Assembly: GCF_003334385.1 (NCBI RefSeq)
Contig: NZ_QOWN01000012.1
Length of the DNA: 64,000 nt
Strand: one strand, 5' to 3'
Origin: Escherichia coli
GTDB lineage: Bacteria; Pseudomonadota; Gammaproteobacteria; Enterobacterales; Enterobacteriaceae
Part shown: positions 28,129 to 60,514 of the stretch, piece after piece
How the letters are laid out: the number at the start of each line of letters is the position of its first letter
Numbering within the stretch: position 1 is the first letter of the stretch
Position numbers and translations under genes: made by a program
The notes under the pieces: generated by a model
The model's database searches: none
Seen by the model: only the letters and a program-made list of their open reading frames with translations
Told to the model about the DNA's origin: nothing

Positions 28129-29577
28129 TTATTCTCCATGCTCATTTTTCTTCAGCTTGCGCATCAGAAGCCACATACGTACTGTCCTGACTTTTAAATC
28201 TTTATCAGAGACGGATTCCTTCACCAGGTCAGCATGATGCTGATAGCCATTAAAGAAGACGTTCAGCACAACGGCGCTAAGGGTTGCGAGCATAATGCCG
28301 CTATGTAGCAGCGGTTGCAGTACGGCCGGTAACTTAGAAAAGAAATCGTGAGAGAGCGTCGGAGTCATGCCAACGCCGAGACTGATCGCCACAATATAGA
28401 GGTTGTAACGGTTGGTGGTGTAGTTACAGCGCGACAGAATTCGAATCCCTGTCGCCAGTACCATGCCGAACATCACTAGACCAGCGCCGCCCAGCACAAA
28501 TTGCGGAATGGAGGCTACCAGCACCGCCATTTTTGGCACCATGCCAAACAGGATTAATATAATTCCCGAAGAAATACACACCCAGCGGCTATGAACGCGC
28601 GTCACGCTAACCAGGCCAACGTTTTGAGAAAATGACGTGTGGGGGAAGCTGTTAAACGTGCCGCCTATCATTGTCCCTACGCCATCGACACGCAGCCCGC
28701 GAATAATATCGTGCGAAGAGAGTTTACGACCGACTATTTCACCCAGTGCCAGGAACATCCCCATCGACTCGATAAACACGATGATTAACACGGCAGTCAT
28801 GGTCAGAATGGAAACGGGATCGAAAATCGGCATACCAAACGACATCGGCGTAACAATCGCAAACCATGAAGCATCATGTAGCCCGGATAAATTGACTTCA
28901 TTCATCATCCACGAAAGTAAAAAGCCAAATACAATCCCCAGTAATACGGCGACGTTGGACATAAATCCTTTCGCATAGCGAGTAATGAGCAAGATAAAAA
29001 TTAAGACGGCAAAGGAGATACCTAAATAAACGGGATTACCATATTGCGGATTCCCTTTACCTCCGGCGGCCCAGTCAATACCCACCTGAATGATGCTAAG
29101 CCCGATAGAAGTAATAACCACACCGGTAACCAGTGGCGGGAATAAAGGCATCAAGCGACCGATAAGTGGCGCTAATAATGTGGTGATAAAACCCGCGGCG
29201 ATAGTGGCACCAAATATCCCCAGCAGGCCGATATCCGGGTTCATCCCAATGGCTATCATTGGTGTTACAGCAGCAAAGGTCACCGACATAATCACCGGCA
29301 GGCGGATCCCCATAAAGCGGCCGATACCGATACATTGCAATAATGTGACGATCCCGCAGCAAAAGAGATCCGAGCTAATGAGCATCGCAATAGCTTCTTT
29401 TGAGAGGCCCAGTCGGTCACCAATCATAAGAGGAACAGCGACTGCACCTGCGTACATGACAAGGACGTGTTGCAGACCGAGTATGATCAGCTTTCCTGGT
29501 GATAATATGCGGTCAACCTCATCAGTTGGGCGGTCTTGCCCAGAAGATGAGGGAAGTTGGGAATCTATGGCGCTCAT
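28129..29577 (-). CDS. uacT: Uric acid transporter UacT (NCS2/NAT family), 482 aa
   Basis: MSAIDSQLPSSSGQDRPTDEVDRILSPGKLIILGLQHVLVMYAGAVAVPL...; track ORF carries a 43-codon upstream extension. Confidence 0.9.
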   Translation of the reverse strand: MSAIDSQLPSSSGQDRPTDEVDRILSPGKLIILGLQHVLVMYAGAVAVPLMIGDRLGLSKEAIAMLISSDLFCCGIVTLLQCIGIGRFMGIRLPVIMSVTFAAVTPMIAIGMNPDIGLLGIFGATIAAGFITTLLAPLIGRLMPLFPPLVTGVVITSIGLSIIQVGIDWAAGGKGNPQYGNPVYLGISFAVLIFILLITRYAKGFMSNVAVLLGIVFGFLLSWMMNEVNLSGLHDASWFAIVTPMSFGMPIFDPVSILTMTAVLIIVFIESMGMFLALGEIVGRKLSSHDIIRGLRVDGVGTMIGGTFNSFPHTSFSQNVGLVSVTRVHSRWVCISSGIILILFGMVPKMAVLVASIPQFVLGGAGLVMFGMVLATGIRILSRCNYTTNRYNLYIVAISLGVGMTPTLSHDFFSKLPAVLQPLLHSGIMLATLSAVVLNVFFNGYQHHADLVKESVSDKDLKVRTVRMWLLMRKLKKNEHGE

Positions 29578-30012
29578 CAGTGTTTCTCCTTTCGCCCGCC
29601 AGAGTAAAAAGCAACCGTTTACGTTAATGAAACTGTCTAAACACATGCTCGTGGAGTGCCAGTTTTTGCGAGGAAGGGGAGTTAGAGACAGGAATTGCGG
29701 AGGCAATCACATAATCGTGGTTAAACCACGAAAATGAGAAGAGAACCTGACAATGGAATTATCTGTAATTTTCTCATATTGATATTTCATTAATCATTCT
29801 GGCATGTCGCACTCTCGCATTTAATCGTTTTTATCTGGATAGCGCTCTTTTGATCGGCAATGTTGAAATAATGAAAGCGGCATAGATTGAGGGGCAATAA
29901 TTTGAACTCAGTCGCAAAATTATAATTAAAACGGTCATGCTACCTAATATATGCCCGTTTATTGCATCGCGAAATTTGAGAAGACATAACTCATTAAATG
30001 AAAGGGATGCAA

Positions 30013-58160: not shown

Positions 58161-60419
58161 TCAAATCAATCCTGCCAGATGGAACTCTTCATATAACCGT
58201 TTTGGCGTCAGCGGCAGTGTATTGATTGCAACACCGGTAGCCATCTTCACCGCGTTACGAATAGCAGCGGCAACAGGAATTATTGGTGGCTCACCCAGTG
58301 ACTTATGTCCGTATGCGGATTGCGGCTCATTGATTTCGACGAACGCGCTTTCCAGTTGTGGCAGATCCGGCATGGTCGGCATTTTGTAATCCAGCAGATT
58401 GGGGTTACGGACCACGCCGCTTTTAGCATCGATGATCATCTCTTCAAATAGCGCCCAGCCAATGCCCATTCCCATTCCGCCGTGTACCTGACCTTCTGCC
58501 AGCAGTGGATTAAGAATATGCCCTGAATCATGAACGTTGAGGATGCGGTTGATGGTGACTTTGCACAGCGCAATATCGACCGTCAGATCAACAAAGGTAC
58601 AGCCAAACGCCGGTGGGTTAGTGGTGGTTTTGATGGAGCTTTCAGCAGAGAGCTGCCCGCCGCGTTCAGGGTGGTAGAAAGCGTCCATCGCCAAATCTTT
58701 TAACGACATTAACGGCTCTTCCGGTCGTTCAACCAGCACGATATGGCCTTTTATCAGGGTCAGATTCATCGCTGACTGATGTAGCATGACTGCGGCGTGA
58801 GCGATGATTTTCTCTTTTAATAATAGTGCCGCACTGCGCAGCGCAGGCGCGGCAACATAGCTCTGGCGTGAGGCAAATGCGCCGGGATCGAACGGCGTAA
58901 CGTCGGTATCTTGAGTTGAAATAACGCGAACGTCGCTGACCGGAACCCCCACGGTTTCTGCCACCATTTGCGAGAAGACGGTGTCGGCACCCTGACCGAT
59001 TTCCGTCGCGCCGCTTTGCACGTTGATGGTTCCATCCTGATTCATCAGAAGGCGCGCGCCTGCTATTTCTACGCCGACAGGCCAGGTGTTAGAGGTGTAG
59101 CTAAAACAGGCGACGCCAACGCCGCGGCGCAAATTGCCTTGCTGGTTCTGGCATTCTGCACGGCGTTTTTCCCATTCAAAGATTTTCCGGCCTTTTTCAA
59201 GACACTCCGGCAACCCTGCGCTGTAAATACGTTTGCCCGTGAGCGGATTAGCATCTCCTTCGCGGGCGGCGTTGCGTAAACGAATTTCAACAGGATCAAT
59301 ACCTAACGCTGTCGCGGCGTCATCAAGCATAGACTCAACGGCAAATACGACTTGTGGCGCGCCATAACCACGCATCGCACCAGCCGAGGGGAGGTTGGTA
59401 TAGCAGGTCTTTGAACTGTAAGCGTAGGCACAACGAGGATAAAGGTAAGCGACTTTATTCCCCCCCGCAGAAGCGATGGAGTGCCCGTGAGATGCATAAG
59501 CGCCGGTGTTAGACAGAACATCCAGACTATAACCTTTCAATGTTCCGTCGCGGTTCACGCCCATTTGCCCGTCAATGGTAAAAGCGTGGCGGGTACGGGT
59601 TGCGAGGAAACACTCTTCACGGCTAAGGGAAACTTTCACCGGAATGCCGCCAAGCTTGCTGGTCAGGAATGCCGCCATTGGCTCTTCCAGTACATCCTGT
59701 TTATTACCAAAACCGCCACCGACAAATGGTTTGATGACTCGTACGCATGACCAGGGAATATCCAGCGCCTGACCAACCACGCGGCGAACAATGTGCGGGA
59801 TCTGGGTGCTGGAAACGATGGTAATTCGCGAGTCATCCTCCATCCACGCCAGCGATGTTACGCTTTCCATGTGACAATGTTGAATAACGGGGGTCTGATA
59901 GTGCCCCTGTACCTGGTAGTCGGCGGCATCGATTGTTTGTTGGACATTACCCGTCGACATCGTGCTTTGTTTCAGTAAATTGCCACCGTTATGGATTGGT
60001 GCAGCGTCTTCTGCCAGCGCCGCTTCTGGCGTGGTGATAACGGGTAATTCTTGCCACTCAATGCTGACCAATTGCGCCGCTTTTTCTGCCGTGAGTTCAT
60101 CGCGGGCCACGACGATGGCAACGGCGTCACCATGATGACGAACATGGCGAGTTAGCAGTGCGCGATCGGCGGTATCGCGCTTGTTTTCGTCAAGTGTCCA
60201 GGCATGCCCAGCTGTAGCGAATGGAATATCAGGCACATCTTCCCAGGTAAAAATCGCCAGTACGCCCGGCAAACTTCTGGCTTGTTCATCATTAATACTT
60301 ACGGCATAACCATGTGCGATAGGGCTACGTACATATTTCGCATAACACATGCCCGCCATAACATAATCGTCAGTATATCGTGCCCGCCCGGTGACCTTAG
60401 CAATGGCATCGACGCGCAT
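58161..60419 (-). CDS. xdhA: Xanthine dehydrogenase molybdopterin-binding subunit, 752 aa
   Basis: MRVDAIAKVTGRARYTDDYVMAGMCYAKYVRSPIAHGYAVSINDE...; track ORF has a 13-codon extension. Confidence 0.93.
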   Translation of the reverse strand: MRVDAIAKVTGRARYTDDYVMAGMCYAKYVRSPIAHGYAVSINDEQARSLPGVLAIFTWEDVPDIPFATAGHAWTLDENKRDTADRALLTRHVRHHGDAVAIVVARDELTAEKAAQLVSIEWQELPVITTPEAALAEDAAPIHNGGNLLKQSTMSTGNVQQTIDAADYQVQGHYQTPVIQHCHMESVTSLAWMEDDSRITIVSSTQIPHIVRRVVGQALDIPWSCVRVIKPFVGGGFGNKQDVLEEPMAAFLTSKLGGIPVKVSLSREECFLATRTRHAFTIDGQMGVNRDGTLKGYSLDVLSNTGAYASHGHSIASAGGNKVAYLYPRCAYAYSSKTCYTNLPSAGAMRGYGAPQVVFAVESMLDDAATALGIDPVEIRLRNAAREGDANPLTGKRIYSAGLPECLEKGRKIFEWEKRRAECQNQQGNLRRGVGVACFSYTSNTWPVGVEIAGARLLMNQDGTINVQSGATEIGQGADTVFSQMVAETVGVPVSDVRVISTQDTDVTPFDPGAFASRQSYVAAPALRSAALLLKEKIIAHAAVMLHQSAMNLTLIKGHIVLVERPEEPLMSLKDLAMDAFYHPERGGQLSAESSIKTTTNPPAFGCTFVDLTVDIALCKVTINRILNVHDSGHILNPLLAEGQVHGGMGMGIGWALFEEMIIDAKSGVVRNPNLLDYKMPTMPDLPQLESAFVEINEPQSAYGHKSLGEPPIIPVAAAIRNAVKMATGVAINTLPLTPKRLYEEFHLAGLI

Positions 60420-60514
60420 GCATGATTCACCCGTAGCGGTTGCTTCCCGCGCTTCCATAGAAATCCCCTCGATTTGAACATTTGGTTCTTATGGCAAAGA
60501 TTTAGTCTAAGCAG

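Follow-up and report, generated by a model that had tools for sequence, protein, structure and literature searches.

An intact K-12-type purine and urate catabolism cluster in Escherichia coli, with a predicted layout of its YgeV enhancer sites

Introduction

Does the purine block of an Escherichia coli contig (NZ_QOWN01000012.1, assembly GCF_003334385.1) encode a complete and working route for urate degradation, and does it differ from the published locus? We addressed this question for a 64-kb stretch of that contig (64,000 nucleotides, hereafter the window), in which positions 28129–60458 hold 22 protein-coding genes in an uninterrupted run from uacT to xdhA. Gut bacteria use this cluster to remove urate, which humans, having no uricase, cannot degrade, and probiotic E. 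coli is being engineered with it to counter hyperuricaemia and gout. An earlier note, made from the letters of the window, had described a contiguous, undisrupted cluster of 21 genes that was probably functional, several components of which still lacked firmly assigned reactions.

Our analysis identifies the block as the E. coli purine-catabolism cluster in what is essentially its K-12 allele, with published pathway steps and with inferred roles in cofactor maturation, electron input and regulation. We put the probability of this reading at about 0.93. For the window the result is confirmatory: the cluster is the standard K-12-type form, already known, its chemistry was solved in 2025, and nothing in the sequence is at odds with the published account. 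The modestly new element is a prediction, namely the layout of enhancer sites for the regulator YgeV (probably the counterpart of DioR in Clostridiales) mapped here in E. coli.

Identity of the block

The gene order is uacT, ygfT, ygfS, ghxQ, guaD, xanQ, xdhD, ygfM, ssnA, ygfK, mocA, yqeC, yqeB, yqeA, hyuA, ygeY, ygeX, ygeW, ygeV, xdhC, xdhB and xdhA. Position 28129 is where the uacT stop codon (minus strand) ends, and 60458 is the upstream ATG of the longer xdhA frame (765 aa), the start used by RefSeq. The genes fall into the following units.

28129–29577, minus strand: uacT (ygfU), urate:H+ symporter of the NCS2 family (RefSeq name urate/proton symporter); 100% identical to K-12; TIGR03173, 509.8 bits against a cut-off of 414.15
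30013–32420, plus strand: ygfT (uacF) and ygfS; 100% identical to K-12; NF009451, 1505.9 bits against a cut-off of 1154
32456–36593, minus strand: xanQ-guaD-ghxQ, xanthine permease, guanine deaminase and guanine/hypoxanthine permease; 99.8–100% identical to K-12
36758–40404, minus strand: ygfM-xdhD, flavin adenine dinucleotide (FAD) subunit and molybdenum/Fe-S subunit of urate reductase (2,8-dioxopurine dehydrogenase); 100% identical to K-12
40455–44884, minus strand: ygfK-ssnA, NAD(P)H-dependent Fe-S flavoprotein and amidohydrolase; 100% identical to K-12
45206–48330: mocA (minus strand), molybdenum-cofactor cytidylyltransferase, and yqeC-yqeB (plus strand), two markers of the selenium-cofactor trait; identical to K-12
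48371–54502, minus strand: ygeW-ygeX(dpaL)-ygeY-hyuA-yqeA(arcC), carbamoyltransferase, diaminopropionate ammonia-lyase, ureido hydrolase, hydantoinase and carbamate kinase; 99.8–100% identical to K-12
54978–56756, plus strand: ygeV (isrR), sigma-54 enhancer-binding protein, presumed activator of the cluster; 100% identical to K-12
56796–60458, minus strand: xdhA-xdhB-xdhC, xanthine dehydrogenase; 100% identical to K-12; XdhA NF007426, 1475.4 bits against a cut-off of 916

Megablast against MG1655 (NC_000913.3, 2996000–3036000) returned two collinear blocks of 99.979% and 99.993% identity, both with zero gaps within genes, and in tblastn all K-12 proteins from UacT to XdhA gave full-length, gap-free matches. 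Every coding sequence of the block has one stop codon, the terminal one. The earlier note had named alignment to K-12 as the test of its claim that every open reading frame is full length; inside the block, this alignment revealed no frameshifts, premature stops or insertion sequence (IS) elements, and the claim stands. The contiguity of the cluster was likewise borne out by its coordinates and by collinearity with K-12, while the gene count has to be corrected from 21 to 22.

Over the 36.8 kb aligned, the window and K-12 differ by six single-nucleotide polymorphisms in all. The only amino-acid changes are XanQ C433S and HyuA I142M, and 20 of the 22 proteins are identical; apparent differences in YqeC and ActS proved to be artefacts of GTG/TTG start codons. 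In MG1655, b2866–b2888 (xdhA to uacT) have the same gene order, orientation and sigma-54 promoter sequences, and what distinguishes the window, apart from the two substitutions, is a shorter yqeB–yqeA spacer and an integrase islet beyond glyU. The XanQ C433S change (window 35296) is absent both from K-12 and from strain ML35. A cysteine-less XanQ is functional, and the substitution is hence probably neutral.

The start of xdhA is ambiguous. In the K-12 annotation the gene starts at the ATG at 60419 (752 aa), in RefSeq at that at 60458 (765 aa); the XdhA family profile reaches about 10 residues past the short, 752-aa form, and the -12 element of the xdhA sigma-54 promoter is 95 nt away from the 60419 ATG and 56 nt away from the 60458 one.

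To assign families, we scored the proteins against curated NCBIfam cut-offs (release 20, June 2026), a scan that covered the block apart from XdhB and XdhC. YgfT, XdhD, YgfM, SsnA, YgfK, MocA, YqeC, YqeB, carbamate kinase, the hydantoinase, YgeY, diaminopropionate ammonia-lyase, YgeW and XdhA all scored above the cut-off of their own family. This holds for TIGR03310, TIGR03172 and TIGR03309 in the mocA/yqeC/yqeB group and for TIGR03316, TIGR03528, TIGR03526, TIGR02033 and TIGR00746 in the ygeW–yqeA unit. The margins were wide for XdhD (TIGR03313, 2122.8 bits, cut-off 1101.9), YgfM (TIGR03312, 489.7 bits, cut-off 241.5), YgfK (TIGR03315, 1778.7 bits, cut-off 835.3) and SsnA (TIGR03314, 737.9 bits, cut-off 455.5); guanine deaminase scored 633.6 bits on TIGR02967. 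NCBIfam has no model of its own for YgeV. Among the permeases, XanQ passes only the NCS2 superfamily model TIGR00801, its TIGR03173 score of 413.1 bits being just below the 414.15 cut-off, and GhxQ has no NCBIfam match at 1e-10, yet is 100% identical to K-12 GhxQ. UacT, XanQ and GhxQ are all full-length and match characterised K-12 permeases of the NCS2 and AzgA types. The gene identities proposed earlier (transporters, guanine deaminase, molybdenum hydroxylases, Fe-S flavoproteins, amidohydrolases, transcarbamylase, carbamate kinase and ammonia-lyase) are correct.

Strong hairpins close likely transcription units after xdhD, ghxQ/ygfS, yqeA and ygeV, and internal ones follow ygeW and ygeY. 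Hairpins at 36733–36748 and 32450–32427 flank the xanQ-guaD-ghxQ unit. The ygfK (41786–44884) and ssnA (40455–41783) genes are separated by 2 bp.

The urate-degradation pathway

What chemistry would these genes support? The reductive route was worked out independently by Li et al. 2025 (bioRxiv 10.1101/2025.05.19.654654; Life Metab, PMC12507026) and Liu et al. 2025 (bioRxiv 10.1101/2025.04.24.650524), mostly with MG1655 proteins, and is summarised in a commentary by Percudani; the urate-reduction step in Liu et al. was studied with the C. sporogenes enzyme. UacT imports urate, XanQ xanthine and GhxQ guanine or hypoxanthine. GuaD deaminates guanine to xanthine, which XdhABC oxidises to urate, and in the window all three XdhABC subunits (molybdenum, FAD and 2Fe-2S) are intact. 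XdhD-YgfM with NADH then converts urate to 2,8-dioxopurine, an activity shown for the E. coli complex; Glu606 of XdhD, the residue proposed to orient urate, is present. In coupled assays, YgfK, which uses NAD(P)H, flavin mononucleotide/FAD and Fe-S centres, dearomatises 2,8-dioxopurine, and SsnA opens the pyrimidine ring to give ureidomethyl-hydantoin. Ring opening of the hydantoin by HyuA yields 2,3-diureidopropionate. One of its two ureido groups is phosphorolysed by YgeW, and YqeA uses the resulting carbamoyl phosphate to make ATP; YgeY hydrolyses the other to leave 2,3-diaminopropionate, and YgeX turns this into pyruvate and ammonia.

Mutant phenotypes support the pathway. Deleting xdhA stops xanthine consumption, and deleting xdhD makes urate accumulate (Li et al., PMC12507026); in a delta-ygfK strain the intermediate is missing. 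The earlier statement that reactions were unassigned therefore no longer applies to ygfK, ssnA, ygfM and ygeY (PMC12507026, 10.1101/2025.04.24.650524), but it still describes ygfT and ygfS, for which the link to formate is genetic only.

Since the window proteins are identical or nearly so to those of MG1655, which consumes urate anaerobically, the same functions are a strong inference for this strain. The pathway is probably functional here, as the earlier note had reasonably supposed. Three points weigh against this reading. The argument runs from protein identity to MG1655, urate use by E. coli is strongly medium-dependent, and the 2025 studies disagree on which ureido group YgeW takes off first (Percudani). 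Completeness is moreover relative, because selD, fdhF, aegA and the general molybdenum-cofactor genes are at other chromosomal sites, outside the block.

Comparison with clostridial systems shows what is particular to the E. coli block. The urate reductase of C. sporogenes and C. difficile has no YgfM FAD subunit, and its electron donor is probably a different one; in C. difficile, UacX replaces YgfK and UacY replaces YgeW/YqeA. Unlike the clostridial clusters, the E. coli block adds XdhABC, GuaD, three permeases and YgfT/YgfS. The classical clostridial purine fermentation (the 'xanthinase' route of Rabinowitz) likewise proceeds anaerobically from xanthine or urate and employs selenium-dependent molybdenum hydroxylases, but both its intermediates and its end product are others, formiminoglycine and glycine rather than diaminopropionate and pyruvate. 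Its genes occur mainly in environmental species, and none are present among the annotated genes of the block.

Sigma-54 promoters and candidate YgeV enhancers

How is the cluster switched on? We took sigma-54 sites from the chromatin immunoprecipitation sequencing (ChIP-seq) motifs of PMC4591121. Four of these motifs occur exactly in the window, each 47–95 nt upstream of a start codon. A k-mer comparison of the four upstream regions then revealed a shared repeat with the consensus TTATCA-N3-TGATAA, and pattern scans located two CRP sites.

29950–29966, plus strand: ygfT sigma-54 site TATGCCCGTTTATTGCA; exact match to OS32, which has a weak motif score in PMC4591121
44957–44973, minus strand: ygfK sigma-54 promoter GTGGTGCGATTGTTGCT; exact match to ChIP-seq site OS31
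54593–54609, minus strand: ygeW sigma-54 promoter CTGGCACACTTATTGTT; exact match to ChIP-seq site OS30
60514–60530, minus strand: xdhA sigma-54 promoter CTGGCGTAAATCTTGCC; exact match to ChIP-seq site OS29
29771–29785, uacT–ygfT intergenic region: candidate YgeV enhancer TTCTCATATTGATAT, containing CTCATATTGATA; centre 188 bp upstream of the ygfT sigma-54 element
45141–45155: candidate YgeV enhancer, perfect palindrome TTATCATAATGATAA; centre 191 bp upstream of the ygfK sigma-54 element
54780–54794 and 54809–54823: two candidate YgeV enhancers, TTATCAAACTGAAGA and ATATCAATATGAGAA; the second centred 223 bp upstream of the ygeW sigma-54 element
60627–60662: two candidate YgeV enhancers, CTCATATTGATA at 60628–60639 and TTATCACATTGATTT at 60648–60662; about 120 and about 140 bp upstream of the xdhA sigma-54 element
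45036–45051, between the enhancer site and the ygfK promoter: perfect CRP consensus TGTGAATGAACTCACA
54652–54667, ygeW upstream region: CRP-like site TGTGATCAACCCCACA, one mismatch

The repeat is concentrated in the upstream regions. The 12-mer CTCATATTGATA is shared exactly by three of the upstream regions, the fourth (ygfK) having the palindrome TTATCATAATGATAA, and its three exact occurrences in the window all fall in these regions. With one mismatch allowed, it matches 5 times against 0.11 expected. The 15-bp consensus with at most two mismatches gives 8 matches against 2.05 expected, and 5 of the 8 lie in the four upstream regions. The centres of the candidate sites are 120–225 bp upstream of the -12 elements, within the usual range of enhancers.

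YgeV has the architecture of a protein that could act on such sites. Its Pfam domains are Sigma54_activat (PF00158) at residues 272–439 (E = 2.1e-70), HTH_8 at 548–587, PAS at 162–205 and a weak GAF at 44–126; the GAFTGA loop is at 347–352 and the HTH is of the Fis type. Published expression data point in the same direction: the YgeV iModulon comprises xdhABC, ygeWXY, hyuA, ygfK, ssnA, ygfM, xdhD, ygfT and uacT, and ygfT expression is lowered in a ygeV mutant.

The association also extends beyond E. coli. In our genome-wide search, full-length YgeV relatives came from loci L004–L009 only, a generic AAA+ pattern dominating the other matches; the search returned no orthologue from Escherichia, Shigella or Citrobacter rodentium, and its footprint in Enterobacterales is a single genus. 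In Enterobacter sp. Bisph1, whose YgeV is 69% identical, the motif is found in the ygeW–ygeV spacer and upstream of ygfK. A Clostridium sp. metagenome-assembled genome (L005) and Sedimentibacter hydroxybenzoicus (L007) encode full-length YgeV homologues of 36–39% identity next to xdhABC-like, permease, ygeX, ygeW, ygeY, yqeA and ssnA genes, and in both, one to three perfect motif copies precede TGGCAC-N5-TTGC promoters. The motif has 2–4 matches per 21-kb locus in these three organisms, against a shuffled-locus expectation of 0.01 for Enterobacter and 0.09 for Sedimentibacter. By comparison, only 3 of about 75 other fetched loci, carrying other enhancer-binding proteins, have a copy. The association of regulator and pathway holds across phyla.

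The same motif had been predicted by Nie et al. 2019 (PMC6615313) for the Clostridiales sigma-54 regulator DioR, the function of whose regulon was then listed as unknown. A DioR site, ATTTATCATAATGATAAGG, is listed there upstream of C. botulinum ygeW-ygfK-ssnA-ygeY and has the same core as TTATCATAATGATAA. Because it matches the DioR site predicted for Clostridiales, the E. coli repeat is probably a YgeV enhancer and YgeV is probably the E. coli counterpart of DioR. In the proposed mechanism, YgeV would bind TTATCA-N3-TGATAA 120–225 bp upstream of the xdhA, ygeW, ygfK and ygfT sigma-54 promoters, and the CRP sites lying between enhancer and promoter at ygeW and ygfK would account for glucose repression. 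The positions of these two CRP sites fit the repression by glucose reported by Li et al. (PMC12507026) and the 'native Crp-binding site' of the ygeW intergenic region that these authors replaced. Taken as a whole, we lean towards a conserved sigma-54 regulon for reductive uricolysis, reaching from Enterobacteria to Clostridia, in which YgeV equals DioR, the repeats are its operator and the layout is fixed, with four operons in E. coli and CRP at two of them.

Some observations weigh against this assignment. Two consensus-like repeats are intragenic (46531–46545 and 52965–52979), the site at xdhA coincides in part with an FNR-like sequence, YgeV also features in the literature as IsrR, an indole-responsive (indole-induced) virulence regulator, and the binding sites are predicted from sequence comparison. 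In the literature within reach we found no experimental description of a YgeV site in E. coli. The intragenic repeats may be functional or may be chance occurrences. The first lies in the 3' end of yqeC, some 160 bp ahead of yqeB, a gene that belongs to the clostridial DioR regulon; the second is inside ygeX.

Could the shared AT-rich repeat instead be the target of FNR, of IHF or of some other protein, or a chance feature? The pathway is anaerobic and the motif contains the FNR half-site TTGAT; upstream of xdhA, the sequence TTGATACGTATCAC matches the FNR consensus at 9 of its 10 specified positions. IHF, in turn, often acts between enhancer and promoter at sigma-54 promoters. However, the FNR consensus has no match with up to two mismatches in the other three regions and the IHF consensus has none in any of the four, which led us to reject both for the shared motif. 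Three exact 12-mers cannot be due to chance, the motif accompanies YgeV homologues across phyla while being rare near other enhancer-binding proteins, and an independent comparative study assigned it to the orthologous regulator. We therefore regard this alternative as unlikely and keep YgeV as the presumed binding protein.

The candidate site in the uacT–ygfT spacer may serve both divergent genes. At 29646–29661 (minus strand) there is a sigma-54-like sequence, TGGCACTCCACGAGCA, oriented towards uacT. It precedes the uacT start by 69 nt, is separated from the shared enhancer site by about 110 bp and is only a weak candidate for a fifth promoter, being about 310 bp off the ChIP-seq peak and having no reported ChIP-seq site. 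The strict sigma-54 pattern TGGC-N8-TGCW missed all real promoters, and its 12 matches against 6.9 expected are not above chance; sigma-70 promoter scans of the window were at or below chance level and were not used.

The by-product of this analysis is a testable map of four sigma-54 promoters, candidate YgeV sites and two CRP sites, which could help in engineering promoters and in looking for the signal that induces the cluster.

Conservation and activity of the cluster

An intact cluster could still be an effectively silent relic. There are grounds for considering this: YgeV iModulon activity is low in most laboratory conditions, urate use depends on the medium and is repressed by glucose, and in mice wild-type E. 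coli Nissle brought plasma urate down only to a modest degree where an engineered strain did so reliably (Li et al., PMC12507026). Conservation speaks against it. The half of the block at window positions 28000–48000 is present to at least 80% in one place in 5156 of 5426 complete E. coli genomes, and the half at 44000–63924 in 5144. About 95% of the genomes thus retain the block, at 95–100% identity, which argues for purifying selection. Besides, urate strongly induces ygfK and ygfT, the wild type forms pathway intermediates when glucose is absent, and the homologous pathway confers a fitness advantage on C. sporogenes in gnotobiotic mice. That the cluster of this strain is silent therefore seems to us quite unlikely, and a functional pathway remains the better account.

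Intactness is accordingly the norm in E. coli and nothing unusual in the window. The window is chromosomal E. coli DNA; several strains are 100.0% identical to it over 28000–48000, and strain H7 is 100.0% identical over 44000–63924. Strains in which part of the cluster is naturally inactivated do exist: xdhC of strain ML35, otherwise near-identical over the region, carries a premature stop, S29* (comparison stretch 33047–33526). The window xdhC does not have this stop codon.

The sole structural difference from K-12 within the block is intergenic. The yqeB–yqeA spacer (48331–48370) is 40 bp long in the window and 220 bp in K-12, the extra sequence being a 180-bp repeat element, similar to repetitive extragenic palindromic sequences and bacterial interspersed mosaic elements (REP/BIME-like), between two 28-bp direct repeats. 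The long K-12 form is found in 1649 of the 5426 complete genomes, the short form being commoner. The window spacer has a single terminator hairpin.

48339–48364, minus strand: GC-rich hairpin terminator after yqeA, in the short spacer form

Electron input and selenium

Where do the electrons for the reductive steps come from? YgfT combines a HydN-like ferredoxin domain and a GltD-like flavoprotein in one chain, and YgfS is a separate HydN-like ferredoxin, 46% identical to the YgfT N-terminus. Both belong to the HydN/YsaA/AegA ferredoxin group, which is tied to alternative electron routes from formate dehydrogenase H. The YgfT paralogue AegA (b2468) has the same architecture, an N-terminal HydN-like ferredoxin and a GltD-like flavoprotein domain, and YgfT scores 953.9 bits on the AegA model. 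AegA and YgfT are both implicated in formate-dependent urate degradation. The aegA gene lies outside the cluster and is modestly urate-induced, in contrast to ygfT, whose induction is strong and which has a partner ferredoxin gene, ygfS.

Because the pathway requires a net four-electron reduction, we infer that a formate electron-feeding role is to be favoured for YgfT/YgfS. They would carry formate electrons, by way of formate dehydrogenase H, to NAD(P)H or straight into the reductive steps (XdhD/YgfK). Against this, AegA showed no interaction with formate dehydrogenase H in two-hybrid tests, and the reported tie of YgfT/YgfS to formate-dependent urate degradation is a genetic one. If the proposal is true, the YgeV regulon and a formate-driven electron input through YgfT/YgfS would complete the picture of when E. 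coli burns urate.

The marker genes yqeB and yqeC adjoin the hydroxylase genes, and their products score 417 bits on TIGR03309 (cut-off 220) and 240.9 bits on TIGR03172 (cut-off 73.05), respectively. MocA, YqeB and YqeC would mature the molybdenum cofactor, probably a selenium-containing one, of both hydroxylases. A point against this is that selenium dependence was shown in C. sporogenes and C. difficile and not for E. coli XdhD or XdhA.

It is highly improbable that ygfK, ssnA, ygfM, xdhD and ygeY form a selenate-reduction or general selenium-metabolism system and not a urate pathway: NCBIfam and RefSeq do speak of a 'putative selenate reductase subunit YgfK', a 'putative selenium metabolism protein SsnA' (also 'putative aminohydrolase') and, for YgeY (50789–52000), a 'YgeY family selenium metabolism-linked hydrolase', and the central genes adjoin the selenium-cofactor markers, but purified E. 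coli YgfK and SsnA turn 2,8-dioxopurine into ureidomethyl-hydantoin, XdhD-YgfM reduces urate, YgeY and YgeX take the ureido-amino acid to pyruvate, the ygfK deletion abolishes the intermediate, and a molybdenum cofactor with selenium in the hydroxylases accounts better for the selenium link. These names are superseded by the 2025 biochemistry, which annotation lags behind, and the selenate role of YgfK exists in name only.

Flanking regions

To the right of the cluster, homology to K-12 stops exactly at the 3' end of glyU, tRNA-Gly(CCC), at 61780. Past glyU is an islet (within 61707–64000) without a counterpart in K-12, consisting of a 535-aa site-specific integrase (61915–63522) and a DUF4145-family gene that begins at 63523. 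In strain H7 the same islet is flanked by glyU on one side and by the degenerate ETT2 type III secretion island on the other. The last 76 bases of the window (63925–64000) are the end of a multicopy IS4-family element, IS186/IS421, with up to 22 copies per genome, which interrupts the DUF4145 gene relative to strain H7. No other IS sequence was seen near the cluster, and this one is not part of it.

The left 26 kb of the window are collinear with K-12 as well. An Rfam scan detected neither a riboswitch nor any known RNA family within the cluster; in the left, K-12-collinear part it located the SibC antitoxin RNA (3979–4129), 6S RNA (4778–4961) and the REP-derived naRNA4 (18472–18549).

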